A stretch of 64,000 bases of DNA, from the IMG/VR virus record IMGVR_UViG_3300031088_000737, positions 32,001-96,000 of that record. One strand, given 5' to 3'. Below, in pieces: positions 45,614-63,143 of the stretch (its first letter is position 1; each line of letters opens with the position of its first letter). The notes under the pieces were generated by a model. The model was not told the origin of the DNA and searched no databases. It saw nothing but the letters and a program-made list of their open reading frames with translations. The stretch comes from a virus. Made by a program: the position numbers and the translations under genes.

Positions 45614-45697
45614 TGGTGCGGAAAGTGGGACTCGAACCCACACGCCTCTCGGCACTGGCTTCTAAGACCAGCGTGTCTACCATTCCACCATTTCCGC
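45614..45697 (-). tRNA. tRNA-Leu(UAG)
   Basis: GCGGAAA/TTTCCGC-A-CCA; loop CT TAG AA; long variable arm. Confidence 0.95.
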
Positions 45698-45704
45698 ATA
45701 GACA

Positions 45705-46049
45705 TTAATATTTCTTTTCAATATAATTTAAATCAACATTTTCAAAGATAAAATCTATATTATTATTTTTGCAACAGGTTATCAAATCTTGATAGTCTTC
45801 AAAATCATTGGCATCATAATCAGGAATACTATCTTCATGTTCATATAAATCAATTAAACTGTAACTCAACTCAGTTTCATCAACACCAGCAATATCGGAC
45901 CATTCTTTTCGAATAGAACGTTTAAAGACATAATCAGTAAAATCTTCTTTATGTGGCTCTGCAACCAGTTCGCCATCAAGGAAGATATTCCAATAACGAT
46001 TGTCATACAAATTAACGATAACAATTTTACCTTTCACTGAGTTTGTCAT
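45705..46049 (-). CDS. Small acidic hypothetical protein inside the tRNA operon
   Basis: Start moved to MTNSVKG; the track extension runs into a tRNA gene. Confidence 0.65.
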   Translation of the reverse strand: MTNSVKGKIVIVNLYDNRYWNIFLDGELVAEPHKEDFTDYVFKRSIRKEWSDIAGVDETELSYSLIDLYEHEDSIPDYDANDFEDYQDLITCCKNNNIDFIFENVDLNYIEKKY

Positions 46050-46084
46050 GTTTAAATACCTTTGTAAGAAATAAAACATAAAGT

Positions 46085-46168
46085 TGGTGCCCGAAGACGG
46101 ACTCGAACCGTCACTCCCGAAGGAAGGGGATTTTAAGTCCCCCGCGTCTACCATTTCGCCATTCGGGC
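46085..46168 (-). tRNA. tRNA-Leu(UAA)
   Basis: GCCCGAA/TTCGGGC-A-CCA; GGGGA CT TAA AA TCCCC. Confidence 0.95.
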
Positions 46169-46178
46169 ATAAAAAAGT

Positions 46179-46274
46179 AATTCAATATTTTAGAATGCAT
46201 TTCAGCAAACGTGTCTACCACTCCACCACCCCGTGCAAACACGAGAAAAGGATTCGAACCTTCGATATTGAATT
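46179..46274 (-). ncRNA. Circularly permuted tRNA-like RNA (T arm, loop-closed acceptor stem, D arm)
   Basis: AATTCAATAT/ATATTGAATT outer stem; GAAGG TTCGAAT CCTTT; TCTCGTG-TTTG-CACGGGG; TG GTG GAGTGGTAGA CAC. Confidence 0.75.
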
Positions 46275-46279
46275 AAATC

Positions 46280-46364
46280 TGGTCCCCGGAGCCGGACTCG
46301 AACCGGCACGCCTTTCGGCGGGAGATTTTAAGTCTCCTGTGTCTACCAATTCCACCATCCGGGG
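46280..46364 (-). tRNA. tRNA-Leu(UAA)
   Basis: CCCCGGA/TCCGGGG-A-CCA; GGAGA CT TAA AA TCTCC. Confidence 0.95.
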
Positions 46365-46382
46365 ATAAACACATGTACAATC

Positions 46383-46468
46383 TGGTACCCGAAGTCGGAC
46401 TCGAACCGACACGCTTTTCAGCGGGAGATTTTGAATCTCCTGTGTACTACCAATTTCACCATTCGGGC
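46383..46468 (-). tRNA. tRNA-Leu(CAA)
   Basis: GCCCGAA/TTCGGGT-A-CCA; GGAGA TT CAA AA TCTCC. Confidence 0.93.
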
Positions 46469-46479
46469 ATATCTAAATC

Positions 46480-46564
46480 TGGTACGGAAGATGGGACTCG
46501 AACCCACACGCCTCGCGGCACTGGTTTCTGAAACCAGCATGTGCTACCATTTCATCACTTCCGC
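46480..46564 (-). tRNA. tRNA-Leu(CAG)
   Basis: GCGGAAG/CTTCCGT-A-CCA; CTGGT TT CAG AA ACCAG. Confidence 0.93.
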
Positions 46565-46578
46565 ATTAACTCATAATT

Positions 46579-46664
46579 TGGTACCCGAAGTCGGACTCGA
46601 ACCGACACGCCTTTCAGCGGGAGATTTTAAGTCTCCTGTGTACTACCAATTTCACCATTCTGGC
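46579..46664 (-). tRNA. tRNA-Leu(UAA) with one acceptor-stem mismatch
   Basis: GCCAGAA/TTCGGGT-A-CCA (A4:G69 mismatch); GGAGA CT TAA AA TCTCC. Confidence 0.88.
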
Positions 46665-46675
46665 ATATCTAAATT

Positions 46676-46759
46676 TGGTGCGTTAGGTGAGACTCGAACT
46701 CACAATCCTTTCGGCACTGGCTTCTTAGACCAGCGTGTATACCATTCCACCACTAACGC
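46676..46759 (-). tRNA. tRNA-Leu(AAG)
   Basis: GCGTTAG/CTAACGC-A-CCA; CTGGT CT AAG AA GCCAG. Confidence 0.93.
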
Positions 46760-46768
46760 ATGATTTGT

Positions 46769-46915
46769 CGCTTAAAGTAGGAGTCGAACCTACAAGTCAT
46801 GGACTCAATGTCCATCGCGTCTACCGTTCCGCCATATTAGTAAGATACTAATAACAGGATTCGAACCTGTAATGACAGGGCTATCACCCTATGTCTACCA
46901 TTCCATCATTTAAGC
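46769..46915 (-). ncRNA. Fused double-cloverleaf tRNA-like RNA with swapped acceptor strands
   Basis: Outer GCTTAAA/TTTAAGC; internal TATTAGT-ATCTT-ACTAATA; two D arms, two T arms, two non-canonical anticodon arms. Confidence 0.75.
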
Positions 46916-46919
46916 AATC

Positions 46920-47003
46920 TGGTGCGGAAGGTGGGACTCGAACCCACACGTCTCTCGACACTGGCTTCTAAGGCCAGCACGTCTACCATTTCATCACTTC
47001 CGC
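46920..47003 (-). tRNA. tRNA-Leu(UAG)
   Basis: GCGGAAG/CTTCCGC-A-CCA; CTGGC CT TAG AA GCCAG. Confidence 0.95.
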
Positions 47004-47025
47004 GTGATATTTCTTTACATCAATT

Positions 47026-47109
47026 TGGTGCCCCGAGGGAGACTCGAACTCCCACTCCTTTCGGAAACGGATTTTGAATCCGCCGCGTCTACCATTCCGC
47101 CATCGGGGC
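47026..47109 (-). tRNA. tRNA-Leu(CAA)
   Basis: GCCCCGA/TCGGGGC-A-CCA; GCGGA TT CAA AA TCCGT. Confidence 0.95.
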
Positions 47110-47141
47110 TTATGTTGTAGCTACATATCTTACTATAAATC

Positions 47142-47225
47142 TGGTGCGATTGGAGAGACTTGAACTCTCAATCCTTGCGGCATTGGCTTCTTAGACCAAC
47201 GTGTATACCATTCCACCACAATCGC
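47142..47225 (-). tRNA. tRNA-Leu(AAG)
   Basis: GCGATTG/CAATCGC-A-CCA; TTGGT CT AAG AA GCCAA. Confidence 0.93.
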
Positions 47226-47232
47226 ATATCTT

Positions 47233-47316
47233 AATGAGTAAAGGGACTCGAACCCTTACGCCTTTATGGGGCATGTCTAAGCGAAGACATTATGGCTACC
47301 ATTACATCATACTCAT
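47233..47316 (-). ncRNA. Leu-type tRNA body with 8-nt anticodon loop and no encoded CCA
   Basis: ATGAGTA/TACTCAT; ATGTC TTCGCTTA GACAT; variable arm GCC..GGC; AAGGG TTCGAGT CCCTT. Confidence 0.7.
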
Positions 47317-47318
47317 CA

Positions 47319-47399
47319 GGGGTTTGACTTTGATAATAGTGAGTTACAAGCTAATAATTACTATGTTTCAAAGTTTCCAGTGGGAACCGGAGCAACCCA
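47319..47399 (-). ncRNA. Candidate structured RNA in the array spacer
   Basis: GGGTT/AACCC closing stem; TCCGG TTCCCA CTGGA hairpin (G-U favours minus strand); ACTTTGA/TCAAAGT and ATAGT/ACTAT stems. Confidence 0.4.
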
Positions 47400-47415
47400 A
47401 TTTTAAATCTTTATT

Positions 47416-47500
47416 TGGTGCGGAAGGTGAGACTTGAACTCACAATCATTATAGAAACTGTGTTTGAGACAGTCGCGTTTACCAGTTTCGCCACATCCGC
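47416..47500 (-). tRNA. tRNA-Leu(CAA)
   Basis: GCGGATG/CTTCCGC-A-CCA (one U-U pair); ACTGT CT CAA AC ACAGT. Confidence 0.9.
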
Positions 47501-55533: not shown

Positions 55534-56292
55534 ATGCTGGATATTAAAAACATAGAACCTGACATTTTATTCATTACTAAAAGTATACCTACCGATATCT
55601 TTATGGCGGCTTTGACAACCATTGGTTCGACCGTATATTTTTACGAAGATGAATCTATTATTAAAGATATTTTGCTTTTTCATGGATTCAAAGATATCAG
55701 CTCAACATTACGAACTATCCACTATAAGGTTACTAATGGAAAGATACTTCTCATTCATATAGAAGATTTTTATGTCCGAGATAAATACTGGATTCAATTA
55801 ACGGATAAAAATATTAATTATATTGAAAATAATTTAAAAGAATACGATGACCCCTTGGACTCATTAGATTGTATTAATGAGGGTATTTATCAATTGTATG
55901 ATACAACTTTAGAAATTCCATTTAATGAAATGTTTGATGTTGCCCATATCATTGATGAAAAAATTAAAATTAATAAAATTGAACTTTCATTTAAATACGA
56001 AAAAGATAAAATGATGTCAATTAGAATTTTTCATCGAAAAGGCAGTTATATCCATATAAGTTATATAAATTACGTTGATAAATTTGATTATCTATATTCG
56101 GACTTTATTGAATTTGTTGCTGGCCGCATGAATGTCGCACGATTAATCAATAAAACAAAAAAAATAAATTTAGATATTACATCTGATTCTGATATTGTTG
56201 ATGTAGCCACTCTTACCTTGGATAACTTTCATTTATTCTGGAAGAATTTTACACCCGAACAAAAACTGCTTGTTGAAATGTCTGCAATATAA
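55534..56292 (+). CDS. Hypothetical protein (M-4 family)
   Basis: Ends TLDNFHLFWKNFTPEQKLLVEMSAI. Confidence 0.8.
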   Translation: MLDIKNIEPDILFITKSIPTDIFMAALTTIGSTVYFYEDESIIKDILLFHGFKDISSTLRTIHYKVTNGKILLIHIEDFYVRDKYWIQLTDKNINYIENNLKEYDDPLDSLDCINEGIYQLYDTTLEIPFNEMFDVAHIIDEKIKINKIELSFKYEKDKMMSIRIFHRKGSYIHISYINYVDKFDYLYSDFIEFVAGRMNVARLINKTKKINLDITSDSDIVDVATLTLDNFHLFWKNFTPEQKLLVEMSAI

Positions 56293-56302
56293 GGACTAGA
56301 TA

Positions 56303-57082
56303 ATGATTGACTTAAAAACCACTGAGATGAAGCTTATCACTGTAGATATTAATACCTTTGATGCTAACGAATTTGTTAGTCATGTGTATGAACCAGAAGT
56401 GTGTGTTGCTTTTATTAACTACAGTTATGAAATGCTAGACAATGTTTTTAGAAATGCCGGATTTTCAAAAATCAAAACGGCTGAAACTCCACATTACTTT
56501 CAAGTTTTAGGAGCGTATATTTTCGTTGTTTACTTAGAGGCGAGTGTCGATAACTTTGTAATGAGAGAAAAATATTACCTTTATAATTCTGAACAAAACC
56601 TGAAAGCTGTCGAAACCTTCAGTAATAAACGGGCCAGTAATGGTTCATTTAAAGATTTTCATAGCGATAGTGAAGTCTTTAAGCATAAACTCTTTCCAGA
56701 GTCTTTAGATATGCCATTTTACGTCAACTATCTTGTTCGCTCAGCTTATGAAACGCCGAAACTACTTAGATTAGATTTGGGTTTTAAATATGGTCAAGAT
56801 AAGTTTATGTTTGTATCTATTTTTGATAGAGCAGATAAACGTATACAAATTCAGTATGATACCTATACCCCTAACTGTCAGTATATGTATGCCGAATTTA
56901 TTCAGTTTATTAATGATGAATTAGTCGATTTAACTATCTTTAATCCAAAAAATCAGAAAAAGATGTCGATGATGAATCTGCGGGATGAATTTGATGCTCA
57001 CATTACACTCGACAACTATCATCTTTTCTGGGAACGTTACACGGCTGAACAACTCACATTGATTGAAATGTTAATGGTCTAG
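56303..57082 (+). CDS. Hypothetical protein (M-4 family)
   Basis: Ends TLDNYHLFWERYTAEQLTLIEMLMV. Confidence 0.8.
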   Translation: MIDLKTTEMKLITVDINTFDANEFVSHVYEPEVCVAFINYSYEMLDNVFRNAGFSKIKTAETPHYFQVLGAYIFVVYLEASVDNFVMREKYYLYNSEQNLKAVETFSNKRASNGSFKDFHSDSEVFKHKLFPESLDMPFYVNYLVRSAYETPKLLRLDLGFKYGQDKFMFVSIFDRADKRIQIQYDTYTPNCQYMYAEFIQFINDELVDLTIFNPKNQKKMSMMNLRDEFDAHITLDNYHLFWERYTAEQLTLIEMLMV

Positions 57083-57115
57083 TCGCTTACATATTTAAAA
57101 TGAGGATACTTAATT

Positions 57116-57880
57116 ATGATGGATTTGGAAAATACCGATATACACTTATTGTTTGTTGATATAGAAACAGAAAAAGAGACGCTTTGTCGTTATTTAAGCA
57201 CACCAGCAACTACTGTTTGGTTTGAAAGTCATCGTTCAGAATTATTTTATGATTTGCTTATAAAATCAGGTTTTCAACAATTTAAAAATTTAACAAAATT
57301 GTACTTTCAAGTTTTTGGTGAATTGATCTTGATTATTAATGTTTATGAGACAAATGTTAAAGAAAAATATTGGATTAAAAACACTGAAAGTAATCTGGAA
57401 TTCGTTCAGAAAGCAGATTTAAATTATGAAAGCTCCTTTCAAAGTTATTACAGTGATGCTGCACAACAATATAATCTGTATCCAGAAGCGGTCGATGTTC
57501 CGTTTTTTGAACACTTCGAAATTAGACAAACAGGTAATTTATTTTTAAATAAACCGAGCTTAATTCGTGTAGATATTGGTTTTAAATATGCTCCCGATCA
57601 ATTTATTATTGCTTCTCTTTTTAAAAATGATAAAAATACTGTTCATATTTGTTATGATGACTATAATGATAATTCTAAAAAAACATATCCTGACTTTATA
57701 GAATTTGAAGGTAACCAATTAAGTGTTGTGCAGATGTTAAATAGAAAAACTAGTAAAAAGATATCACTGCTAGAAGAAAACATGTTTGATAGCACACAGA
57801 TAACCTTATCGAACTTTCATTTGTTTTGGGAGCGAATGACAGCCGAAGAGAAAACACTATTAGATATTTTGTTAATTTAA
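57116..57880 (+). CDS. Hypothetical protein (M-4 family)
   Basis: Ends TLSNFHLFWERMTAEEKTLLDILLI. Confidence 0.8.
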   Translation: MMDLENTDIHLLFVDIETEKETLCRYLSTPATTVWFESHRSELFYDLLIKSGFQQFKNLTKLYFQVFGELILIINVYETNVKEKYWIKNTESNLEFVQKADLNYESSFQSYYSDAAQQYNLYPEAVDVPFFEHFEIRQTGNLFLNKPSLIRVDIGFKYAPDQFIIASLFKNDKNTVHICYDDYNDNSKKTYPDFIEFEGNQLSVVQMLNRKTSKKISLLEENMFDSTQITLSNFHLFWERMTAEEKTLLDILLI

Positions 57881-59561: not shown

Positions 59562-60089
59562 TTATCTCAAATTATCATTTTTCAATGTCTTTTTAACTTC
59601 TTTTAGTACATTGGATTGATGAGCGGGTGGATTTTTTATACTGTCGTCTACTATTGTTTTTATTTTGTTAAAGGTATCGCCTATGTCTAAATCTTCTAAT
59701 TTTTTCAAAAAATCATTACCATGTTTTTCATTATGTTTTGATTGCATTGTTTTTTCAAGATTTTTATCATTTTCAAGGTTTTCTTTAGCCCTATGGTTAA
59801 GATATGAAAGCATACCAGCACCAACGGCAAGGCCAACTGGTAAGATCGCTCCTAATGCACCGCCAGCTCCTATATTTTGAAGATAAAGCTTACCTAATAG
59901 CATACCAGTAGGAATGGTCGCCATGCCTGTTAAAAATGTGCTTAAAACAAGATTGTTAGAGAGTTCATTACGATTATCAATTTTTGTATCAACTGATTTG
60001 TAGTTTTTCATTTTTGTTGAAAAGTCTTCAACAAGTTCATTCACTTTATTTAAAAGAACATCTGAATTTTTATTTATGAAAAGCGTCAT
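59562..60089 (-). CDS. Glycine-zipper membrane protein, paralog of 60152..60676
   Basis: AxIPxGMxxGxxYL...GGAxxGAIxPxGL; VDxSIKNPP. Confidence 0.75.
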   Translation of the reverse strand: MTLFINKNSDVLLNKVNELVEDFSTKMKNYKSVDTKIDNRNELSNNLVLSTFLTGMATIPTGMLLGKLYLQNIGAGGALGAILPVGLAVGAGMLSYLNHRAKENLENDKNLEKTMQSKHNEKHGNDFLKKLEDLDIGDTFNKIKTIVDDSIKNPPAHQSNVLKEVKKTLKNDNLR

Positions 60090-60151
60090 GTGTTTATTAT
60101 ATAGTTGTTATTAATATATTATCATACTCTTGAAAAATAGAAATATATGCA

Positions 60152-60676
60152 TTAAAGTTTATTTTTTTTAAGCACTTCTCTAACTTCATTACCCACATCT
60201 TCCTGAAATTTAGGTGGATTTTTAATACTTTCATCAACAACTGCTTTTATTTCTTTAAAGGCATCATCAAGATTGAATTCGCTAAGTTTTTCTAAGAAAT
60301 CTTTTCCCACTACTTCATTGTGCTTGGATTGTAATGATTTATCTAAAGAATCACTGATAGCTAATTGCTGGGTGTCTTTACGATTTAAGTATGAAATCAA
60401 CCCAGAACCTAAGCCAAGACCAGCAGGGATTATTGCTCCTATTGTTGCACCGCCTGTTAAACTGTCCAAATAGGCTGATCCTATCCACATTCCAATAGGG
60501 ATAGCCGCAATAATAGACGCTGCAGCTCCACTTAATAGTTCTTCTGCAACTTCTTCACGATCTTCTATCTTTTCTGCTATTGATACATAATTTATTAAAT
60601 TTTCAGTGTAATCATCGACTAAACCATGAAGTTCATTCGACAGTTCTTCTGATATGCTTTGTTTGAATAGTGCCAT
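60152..60676 (-). CDS. Glycine-zipper membrane protein
   Basis: Same motifs as 59562..60089. Confidence 0.75.
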   Translation of the reverse strand: MALFKQSISEELSNELHGLVDDYTENLINYVSIAEKIEDREEVAEELLSGAAASIIAAIPIGMWIGSAYLDSLTGGATIGAIIPAGLGLGSGLISYLNRKDTQQLAISDSLDKSLQSKHNEVVGKDFLEKLSEFNLDDAFKEIKAVVDESIKNPPKFQEDVGNEVREVLKKNKL

Positions 60677-61335: not shown

Positions 61336-61617
61336 TTAGAAGTATTCTGCGTTCATGTTGTCGTTCACTTTTTTCACAAACTCATCAACATTAATGAAAA
61401 TCTTTTTAACAAGCTCTTTGTTGTCTTTAACAAATTCAGCATTTTCTTCAATCACTAATTCAACCACTGTATTGATGTAAAAATTCAAAAGTTCTTCTAA
61501 TTTCAAGAGTTCTTCCAAATCGGATTTTAATAAGGCGTCTCTGTCCAAACCATCAAATTTTTCTTTTATTGCAAGTAGTTTAACAGATAAATCATTTACT
61601 TTTTCTAAAAATGTCAT
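61336..61617 (-). CDS. Small helical hypothetical protein
   Basis: 93-aa ORF, GGAG SD. Confidence 0.65.
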   Translation of the reverse strand: MTFLEKVNDLSVKLLAIKEKFDGLDRDALLKSDLEELLKLEELLNFYINTVVELVIEENAEFVKDNKELVKKIFINVDEFVKKVNDNMNAEYF

Positions 61618-61854
61618 ATTTTAATCTCCAAGATTTTTAATGTTATTCTATAAACTAATATCATAATTTATACAAAAAGGAAGACAGTGACAGTGTTTAT
61701 TATTATATTTTTTAATCATTATAATATATGACGCCATTCAACTGACGTTACTTATTGTTTGTCTATCATGTCTCATTTTACGAAGTATTTCGTCTATTAT
61801 TATTCAATATTGTGAAAGTTGGCACGTATTTTGGGGGTATGTTGAAGAATGCTT

Positions 61855-61872
61855 TGTAAGCTTCCTCTTACA
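61855..61872. promoter_or_regulatory. GacA/UvrY upstream activating sequence
   Basis: TGTAAG-CTTCCT-CTTACA, an exact match to TGTAAG-N6-CTTACA. Confidence 0.75.
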
Positions 61873-62124
61873 AGACTTGTAGCCGATTATTAGTAGAACC
61901 TTAAATTGAAATCATGCAGAATGCCGAAATATTAAAAAAAAATATTGCAAAAAACCATAAATATTTAATATTCGATGATAAATATTTTTATATTATATGA
62001 TTTTGCTTTCAACTCAAGGACTTATTGAAATATAATAACAACTTTATTTATGAAAAAATGATAAAAAAAATGGAGTTATTCCTTTGGCGTCAATAAAAAA
62101 CCATGCAAAATACTATAAATCTAG

Positions 62125-62152
62125 TTGACATAAAATAAAATACTGTTAGTAT
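62125..62152 (+). promoter_or_regulatory. sigma70 promoter of the CsrB-like RNA
   Basis: TTGACA-16-TAGTAT with extended -10 TG. Confidence 0.65.
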
Positions 62153-62158
62153 GTAATT

Positions 62159-62469
62159 GTCAGCAAGGAAACAACAATAATAACTGCATAAAAAATGATT
62201 TTGAGTGTGGGCTGATGATGTAATGGACGACAATAAAAAAGGAATAGTGACTCAAGGATGTAAGCGTATCAGGATGATGATTTAAGGATATAGGGTTATA
62301 TCAGGACGATAGGGAATCACTCAATAAAGGACTGTTACAAGGAAAAGGAAGAAGAATTAGAATGCACGATGGAATATGTTCTAGTTTATGTACACGGAGT
62401 GTTAATTTGTTTTAATGGATGTAAAAACCAAAGGAATGATAAGAGAGTCGAAAGGCTCTCTTTTTTTTT
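62159..62469 (+). ncRNA. CsrB/RsmZ-like CsrA(RsmA)-sequestering sRNA
   Basis: 15 GGA motifs in about 280 nt, several in short hairpin loops (TATC-AGGAC-GATA, ATC-AGGAT-GAT); terminator GAGAGTC-GAAA-GGCTCTC-T9; no ORF; 5' end approximate. Confidence 0.8.
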
Positions 62470-62510
62470 CTTCAATTTTTGTGGTATACTGAAAAGAAAA
62501 CGAGATCAGT

Positions 62511-63143
62511 ATGATAAATGAATTAAAAGAAAAGTATAACGCCATTGCTGTATTCCCTTATGGCTCCAATGTCTATAAAAATAAAACGCCTGAAGATTTT
62601 GATTTTATTATTGTCAGTGATAAGCCTTATTTCCAAGAACAATTTGAACAAGACAATATAAAATATGAAATCAGTAATTATAGCAAAGAAGAGTTCTTAG
62701 AACGTCTGAAAGAACATGAAATCTCCGTTCTGGAATGTTTGTATATTCCACATAAAGAAAAATACCTCTCACCCGCACTCAGTCGTGAAATAGAAGGGTT
62801 TACTTTGGATAAAGAAAAATTAAGAGAAAGCTGCTCACAAAAAAGTTCAAACAGTTATGTGAAAGCTAAGAAGAAATTGATTATTGAAGAAGATTTTAAT
62901 TTAAGTGTGTCTTACAAGTCATTGTGGCATTCTCTTCGTATCCTAGATTTTGGTCTACAAATAGCTAAAACTAATAAAATCAATCCAGAAAGTTGCAATG
63001 AATTATATGACCAAGTGATTAAAGACTATCTTATCATGAAAAATGATTGGTCTAAACTTCACGAGAAGTATAAACCACTTCATAACAAGATAGCTTCTGA
63101 ATTTAAACAGGAATGTCCTAAAAAGATTCACAAATGTATGTAA
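62511..63143 (+). CDS. DNA polymerase beta-superfamily nucleotidyltransferase
   Basis: FPYGSNVY...EDFDFIIV (GS plus DxD) followed by a helical domain. Confidence 0.75.
   Translation: MINELKEKYNAIAVFPYGSNVYKNKTPEDFDFIIVSDKPYFQEQFEQDNIKYEISNYSKEEFLERLKEHEISVLECLYIPHKEKYLSPALSREIEGFTLDKEKLRESCSQKSSNSYVKAKKKLIIEEDFNLSVSYKSLWHSLRILDFGLQIAKTNKINPESCNELYDQVIKDYLIMKNDWSKLHEKYKPLHNKIASEFKQECPKKIHKCM

Follow-up and report, generated by a model that had tools for sequence, protein, structure and literature searches.

We identify a discrete, independently transcribed noncoding RNA on an AT-rich replicon and consider it, with moderate confidence, to represent a new family of CsrA-titrating RNAs of the CsrB/RsmZ type, under Gac control in some of its lineages. 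The RNA gene lies in a window of 64,000 nt (the whole stretch of DNA analyzed here), which belongs to a 181,270-bp IMG/VR record classed as viral and labeled "provirus." The features of the locus are collected in Table 1.

A discrete and expressed noncoding transcription unit

The largest gene-free gap of the 181-kb record, an 893-nt interval, contains the RNA gene together with an upstream palindrome and an AT-rich spacer. The promoter of the RNA is the best promoter-like site found by scanning positions 61400 to 62700, and it matches the consensus at 10 of 12 positions in addition to its extended -10 element. The -35 hexamer TTGACA occupies 62125 to 62130 and TG-n-TAGTAT occupies 62144 to 62152, with the transcription start inferred at approximately 62159. 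At the other end, four of the nine base pairs of the terminator stem are G-C, and the T-run extends to 62472 (U9). Neither the ORF check nor the alignment of relatives reveals a conserved ORF inside the unit. The unit therefore has the form of the CsrA-sequestering small RNA class, a discrete noncoding transcript with its own promoter and intrinsic terminator. A preliminary description of this DNA had proposed an ORF-free unit of about 310 nt with 15 GGA motifs and a strong terminator, and the unit is present at that location, with terminator and motif count in agreement.

A 901-nt stretch around the RNA gene is matched in many public sequencing runs, and those that contain it at 100% include isolate and transcriptome runs. 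We examined four RNA sequencing runs, each from a different study: the transcriptome of one organism, two metatranscriptomes from wastewater, and one from a fermentation. Each run yields one assembled RNA contig at the locus (62165 to 62437, 62177 to 62411, 62181 to 62421, and 62199 to 62393), and all four fall inside the promoter-terminator unit, although contigs do not resolve the exact ends or the strand of the RNA; the first is assembled at a depth of 55. In none of the four runs does an RNA contig cover the flanking genes or the upstream gap, and beyond this result the parts of 61700 to 62600 lacking contig cover are not read as absence of transcription. Contigs confined to the same unit in four independent libraries argue for an abundant small RNA rather than for DNA carry-over or a long mRNA. 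Positions 62159 to 62472 are thus a discrete, independently transcribed RNA.

Table 1. Features of the RNA locus and its flanks, in window coordinates
Feature	Position	Strand	Basis or remark
Divergent 93-aa gene, left boundary of the gap	61336..61617	-	No family match
GacA/UvrY-type palindrome TGTAAG-CTTCCT-CTTACA (TGTAAGCTTCCTCTTACA)	61855..61872	.	Motif search
AT-rich spacer, box to -35	61873..62124	.	Composition and alignment
Sigma70-type promoter, TTGACA / 16 nt / TG-n-TAGTAT (extended -10)	62125..62152	+	Promoter scan
Small RNA gene	62159..62472	+	Approximately 311 to 314 nt; motif counts, RNA-seq contigs, promoter and terminator scan
5' domain closed by stem GUCAGC/GCUGAU	62159..62216	+	RNAalifold columns 8-13 pair with 66-71
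Small hairpin UAUCA-GGA-UGAUG/A, GGA at tip, core CAGGAUG	62267..62279	+	RNAalifold columns 129-133 pair with 137-141
11-bp hairpin, 12-nt loop with AUGGAA	62354..62387	+	RNAalifold columns 334-344 pair with 357-367
Intrinsic terminator, 9-bp stem, GAAA loop, T-run	62441..62472	+	Scan; stem 62441-62462
Nucleotidyltransferase gene, 210 aa (Pfam NTP_transf_2)	62511..63143	+	23.2 bits versus cut-off of 21

GGA motifs and predicted fold

The window RNA has 15 GGA motifs in its 314 nt and lacks TCC altogether. A 300-nt stretch of the 181-kb record contains on average 2.19 GGA (standard deviation, 1.61), which puts the RNA approximately 8 standard deviations above the record mean; it is the single such locus in 181 kb, and the next-best locus reaches 9. 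Fourteen of the 15 motifs have the form A(N)GGA. This preference extends to the whole family, where among 178 motifs from distinct members an A stands at position -2 of GGA in 81% and CAGGA accounts for a further 15%, so that A(N)GGA fits approximately 96%. The commonest contexts in the family include CAGGAUG, the classic CsrB repeat, as well as AAGGAAG/U and AUGGAU/CG.

In the predicted folds, GGA motifs have an unpaired probability of 0.58 to 0.73, compared to 0.28 to 0.43 for other G residues. This accessibility is only about 1 standard deviation above that of shuffled sequences and therefore comes mainly from the C-poor composition of the RNA, that is, from the avoidance of C and especially of TCC. 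The global fold is no more stable than that of shuffles (z, -0.38), which is common among sponge-type RNAs and lends no support here. RNAalifold, applied to 11 sequences, predicts four conserved helices (the 5' closing stem, the small hairpin, the 11-bp hairpin, and the terminator) and leaves the remainder open. Two pairs of the 5' closing stem show compensatory changes, including an A-U to G-C change in relative L011, and the small hairpin is kept in at least 10 of the 11 sequences. In the 11-bp hairpin, which also appears in the single-sequence fold, three pairs are changed on both sides, and the terminator stem pairs are kept throughout the 11 sequences with G-U and A-U changes. Two of the conserved hairpins present GGA in their loops. 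The many accessible A(N)GGA motifs that mark the CsrA-sequestering class are thus found here, with 15 in the window RNA and 13 to 22 in its relatives, their accessibility being predicted.

A family of related RNAs

Relatives of the RNA were found through homologs of a Pnkp-like neighbor protein and the contigs encoding them, and three more were added by a 17-mer scan of viral contigs and metagenomes. That scan returned 34 loci, of which only L025, L038, and L053 are true homologs; the other loci were rejected as chance matches. A 921-nt region searched against phage and plasmid records gave no match, and searches of viral contigs with the nucleotidyltransferase and the Pnkp-like protein recovered no relatives.

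The resulting family comprises ten distinct RNA homologs, each directly upstream of an orthologous nucleotidyltransferase gene of 210 to 215 aa. All members contain 13 to 22 GGA and at most one TCC. Alignments show that the -35 element, the extended -10 element, the first transcribed bases, and the terminator are kept in all collected RNAs; in the 11 aligned relatives the -35 hexamer and the -10 region persist without exception and with only small changes in the -10, while the sequence upstream diverges or is replaced. Aligned RNA positions are better conserved than the adjoining coding DNA, with, for example, 81 to 83% versus 69 to 73% identity. Even the most distant member, L010, retains the same design at 67% identity, with 18 GGA. 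A family profile, which is an nhmmer profile and not a covariance model, finds one copy of the RNA per locus and one in 181 kb.

Three members have long forms of 419 to 423 nt with 21 to 22 GGA (L004:4144-4574, L005:4140-4568, and L013:4137-4569), and these carry an internal tandem duplication of approximately 110 to 145 nt of the GGA core. A GGA number that shifts by internal duplication is as expected of a modular sponge.

A GacA-type box upstream of the promoter

The palindrome TGTAAGCTTCCTCTTACA is the only site with zero or one mismatch to TGTAAG-N6-CTTACA in the window and in the entire 181 kb, for which base composition predicts approximately 0.02 perfect boxes by chance. It runs from -304 to -287 relative to the inferred start, and the earlier placement of an exact palindrome "about 290 bp upstream" is therefore fair. 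The AT-rich spacer described along with it is likewise confirmed, its 252 nt having 23% G+C compared to 30.5% for the window. A palindrome upstream of the promoter, the mark of the Gac/BarA-UvrY regulon, is thus present in the window. In characterized csrB and rsm promoters the box lies at approximately -70 to -200, and the box here is farther upstream, at approximately -300.

We observe a perfect box at -302 to -304 in six distinct sequences (the window, L004, L005, L013, L025, and L058). All 12 half-site positions are invariant among them and agree with the described GacA box consensus, TGTAAGN6CTTACA (PMC8523701), while the spacer occurs as CTTCCT, CATCCT, CTTCAT, and CTACCT. L025 keeps the box despite an RNA identity of only 81% and divergence of the upstream DNA around it, and the net length between box and promoter differs by no more than 2 nt from that in the window clade. 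The box of L004 is identical at 17 of 18 positions, one nucleotide apart, to the upstream activating sequence of rsmY in Pseudomonas fluorescens SS101, TGTAAGCATTCTCTTACA (PMC4353343). Invariant half-sites, with changes confined to the spacer, show that the box is under selection, and it resembles a genuine site for a regulator of the GacA/UvrY family.

Six relatives (L007, L008/L009, L011, L038, and L010) lack the box while keeping the RNA and its promoter, and several of these have only approximately 130 to 190 nt upstream of the promoter. The Gac wiring is thus lineage-specific rather than family-wide, and the proposal that the RNA is wired to a GacA/UvrY system probably applies to the six box-bearing sequences but not to the family at large. 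It is also possible to read the palindrome, from its sequence, as an RNA hairpin with a 7-bp stem and a variable loop; however, no transcript covers it.

The spacer between box and promoter contains conserved islands at 61905 to 61950 and at 62085 to 62115, with ATCTTGCAAAAAAC occurring twice and TTGGCGTCAATAAAAAACCATGCAAAA just before the -35 element. Further regulators or a DNA-bending protein might bind at these islands. Separately, a conserved block, TGGCACGTATTTTGG (61820 to 61834), lies approximately 20 nt upstream of the box and persists in L025 as well as in the window clade. It resembles the sigma54 promoter TGGCACG-N4-TTGC except in its last base, and the strict sigma54 motif is found nowhere else in the 181 kb.

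Searches for known RNA families and protein partners

At the gathering threshold, an Rfam scan of the window matches no Csr/Rsm model (CsrB RF00018, CsrC RF00084, RsmY, RsmZ, RsmX, and relatives), and Rfam scans of the window together with seven loci that span the remainder of the record return only tRNAs. A permissive search of 61600 to 62600 brings up only CsrC, at 8.8 bits (E value, 5.9) against a cutoff of 61. Although it has the anatomy that defines the functional class, the RNA thus falls outside every filed family. On the protein side, the 181-kb record contains no csrA (PF02599) and no response regulator or GerE-type helix-turn-helix gene, and a rough tblastn search with E. coli CsrA finds nothing in 605 kb comprising the record and other sequence.

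The preliminary description had called the RNA a CsrB/RsmZ-like sponge, naming Rfam and a csrA homolog on the replicon as places to look for confirmation. Neither provides it: Rfam has no match, and no csrA is found in the 605 kb examined. What stands is a discrete, conserved, and modular RNA whose A(N)GGA motifs are mostly unpaired in prediction.

The replicon that carries the RNA

Two contigs of one assembly (ERZ27247443) match the IMG/VR record at 100% identity, k141_1011963 (1,281,823 bp) over 22.4 kb and k141_408365 (283,008 bp) over 12.9 kb. Between them, the two contigs run beyond the record on either side and meet at approximately 66.1 to 66.8 kb of the record (G000; window, approximately 34.1 to 34.8 kb), giving a replicon of at least 1.56 Mb; contigs carrying relatives measure 1.46 to 1.92 Mb, among them Ga0247725_1000001 (1.54 Mb) and JGI contigs of 1.86 and 1.92 Mb. 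DNA beyond the left end of the record looks like the DNA within it. Terminase, T4-type capsid, and tail sheath genes were searched for in the 181 kb, and none were found. The record is thus only part of a replicon that measures at least 1.56 Mb and could be either the genome of a cell or a giant mobile element. The "provirus" label is doubtful, and the earlier wording in which the RNA is "element encoded" and answers to the GacA of a "host" is not established.

One reading keeps the function of the RNA and dispenses with the distinction between element and host, taking the replicon as the chromosome of an undescribed AT-rich bacterium that supplies both GacA and CsrA itself and that may be related to Gammaproteobacteria or carry a Gac/Csr module. 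We hold this reading tentatively, as possible but on the unlikely side. It agrees with the identical contigs running past both record ends, the related contigs of 1.54 to 1.92 Mb, the similar DNA outside the left end, the failure to find the three virion gene families in the 181 kb, and genes with sigma70 promoters and intrinsic terminators. Several features speak against it, however. The genes of the record are mostly orphans on alternating strands, accompanied by tRNA arrays, ClpA, Ser/Thr kinases, and phage-like RNA repair and tRNA genes (Pnkp-like, RtcB, and aminoacyl-tRNA synthetases), and the 181 kb show no operon context, rRNA, or response regulator. Its IleS-like gene groups with accessory second copies and not with housekeeping IleS, and IMG/VR classed the stretch as viral. 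The converse reading, in which the 1.5- to 1.9-Mb replicon is a giant mobile or virus-like element in a Gac/Csr bacterium, equipped with a CsrA-sponge RNA that answers to the GacS/GacA signal of the host, we likewise regard as unlikely and somewhat doubtful.

Taxonomic signals are sparse. The box is the one feature from which a gammaproteobacterial host might be suggested. Searching genome contigs with an aminoacyl-tRNA synthetase returns one 2.7-kb contig of a Bacillota MAG at 38% identity, and the nearest named homolog of the Pnkp-like protein, at 47% identity, is in a Silvanigrellaceae MAG. The G+C content of Silvanigrellaceae, approximately 30% (PMC11385108), matches, which is no proof of kinship. 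ClpA and Pnkp show at most 41 to 45% identity to phage records.

An IleS-like protein of 841 aa (G000 113758 to 116283; L060:759-3284, minus strand) forms its own clade on megabase contigs; among named proteins it is nearest, at 43% identity, to accessory copies from Achromobacter and Variovorax that are annotated as "class I tRNA ligase family," and not to the housekeeping IleS. A tRNA array lies at window positions 45614 to 47500, with eleven genes for tRNA-Leu, one resembling tRNA-Gln, and an odd tRNA-like gene for which a 4-base anticodon is called. Three tandem paralogs of approximately 255 aa at 55534 to 57880 have similar hydrophobic tails (…LLVEMSAI, …LIEMLMV, and …LLDILLI), and two adjacent paralogs of 174 and 175 aa at 59562 to 60676 share a central glycine-rich hydrophobic segment and have no family match.

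The adjoining nucleotidyltransferase and other possible functions

The gene downstream of the RNA encodes an orphan Pol-beta-type nucleotidyltransferase with no match in PDB, NCBIfam, or PADLOC. It has its own extended -10 promoter, TGGTATACT (62482 to 62490), within a conserved promoter block. On the opposite side of the gap, the divergent 93-aa gene is syntenic in most relatives. At all loci examined the nucleotidyltransferase gene adjoins the RNA, including L010 with its different upstream neighbor; the L010 ortholog of the nucleotidyltransferase is 68% identical, versus 52% for the Pnkp-like protein.

This adjacency, which survives the upstream rearrangement in L010, is among the points in favor of reading the RNA as a platform for a partner other than CsrA, either the 30S subunit, with AAGGA as a Shine-Dalgarno decoy, or an RNA-binding or RNA-modifying protein of the replicon, such as the nucleotidyltransferase. 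Eight of the 15 window motifs are AAGGA, and many (AAGGAA/G) are Shine-Dalgarno-like; in addition, no csrA appears in the 181 kb of the record or the 605 kb examined. Yet approximately 30% of the family motifs are AUGGA, which is not Shine-Dalgarno-like, GGAGG occurs in none, and the A at position -2 is a CsrA-type signature. The nucleotidyltransferase, with its own conserved promoter, matches no known RNA-partnered system or defense family, the RNA has no exact tandem repeats such as those of a type III antitoxin, and the GacA box would be left unexplained. We therefore consider such a platform improbable. A type III toxin-antitoxin (ToxI-like) RNA, which would consist of exact tandem repeats ahead of a toxin gene transcribed by read-through of the terminator, was considered and rejected on the same grounds: the RNA has no tandem repeat, and the downstream gene has its own promoter and no defense-family match.

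A cis-acting leader attenuating the nucleotidyltransferase, in which a protein on the GGA repeats decides whether the terminator forms, would fit the order of promoter, repeat-rich RNA, terminator, and same-strand gene conserved in all loci, but it is highly improbable given that no RNA contig from the four studies reaches into the gene, that a conserved promoter lies between terminator and gene, and that the consensus fold offers no alternative antiterminator pairing.

Comparison with known Csr/Rsm systems

Sponge RNAs of the Csr/Rsm type act as master switches for carbon metabolism, motility, biofilm formation, secretion, and virulence, and the families known so far are specific to particular lineages, almost all of them within the Gammaproteobacteria. 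The RNA resembles CsrB and CsrC of the enterobacterial BarA/UvrY-CsrA system in size class (250 to 370 nt), in its number of sites (13 to 22 in the present family), in its CAGGAUG-type repeats, and in being much more abundant than its neighbors. The activator site of CsrB and CsrC is also located far upstream across AT-rich DNA. In the window RNA, by contrast, fewer GGAs are predicted in regular hairpins and most are predicted to be single stranded.

With RsmY, RsmZ, and RsmX of the Pseudomonas Gac/Rsm system the family shares the independent small RNA, A(N)GGA in loops and linkers, the intrinsic terminator, and an upstream TGTAAG-N6-CTTACA. It differs from them in being two to three times longer (311 to 423 nt) with more sites, and in having no sequence or covariance-model similarity to them. 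Its box lies at approximately -300 and is missing from half of the family, and the surrounding DNA has 30% G+C. Where rsmX is amplified at the gene level (PMC7911923), the present family changes its module number by internal duplication.

The combination of features found here has served to recognize such RNAs elsewhere. In Marinomonas mediterranea, the Csr RNAs (CsrB/CsrC) were recognized by a GacA box, ANGGA/AGGA motifs, and a rho-independent terminator (PMC8523701), and the lineage-specific Csr RNAs of Pseudoalteromonas show the same three signs (PMC11882849). For Marinomonas and Pseudoalteromonas, however, the organism, the CsrA, and the two-component system are known and the dependence has been measured, whereas the window RNA is known from sequence and RNA contigs. 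Among mobile elements, an ICE of Legionella reportedly carries a CsrA-family protein, CsrT. Plasmid pQBR103 also carries one, RsmQ (PMC9928087). Those elements carry the protein, whereas the window replicon, if mobile, would carry an antagonist RNA; in that case it would, like them, be an element that intervenes in the Csr/Rsm network of its host.

Proposed mechanism and implications

We favor the reading in which the RNA acts as a CsrA sponge. Transcription would start from the near-consensus sigma70 promoter, and in the window lineage a GacA/UvrY-type regulator bound to the palindrome at -304 would probably boost it across the AT-rich and presumably bent spacer. The RNA would then present approximately 13 to 22 accessible copies of A(N)GGA, mostly in C-poor single-stranded stretches but in part also at the tips of hairpins. 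Dimers of a CsrA/RsmA-family protein would bind these sites, and its mRNA targets would thereby be freed from translational repression. Both proteins, CsrA and GacA, could be encoded on the replicon (at least 1.56 Mb) or be supplied by a separate host.

This analysis adds a new expressed RNA family, together with a textbook GacA box, to an AT-rich replicon whose genes are mostly orphans and which also carries arrays of tRNA genes. Of the features described here, the RNA with its box gives the clearest lead to the replicon's biology, and from it one would expect the cell to contain both a CsrA-family protein and a GacA-type regulator. Should the replicon prove mobile, it would be the first known to carry an RNA antagonist of CsrA instead of a CsrA homolog. 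If it is indeed a giant element, then whenever the host's Gac system fires, the element would multiply the release from CsrA repression, steering the metabolism, motility, or defense of its host.
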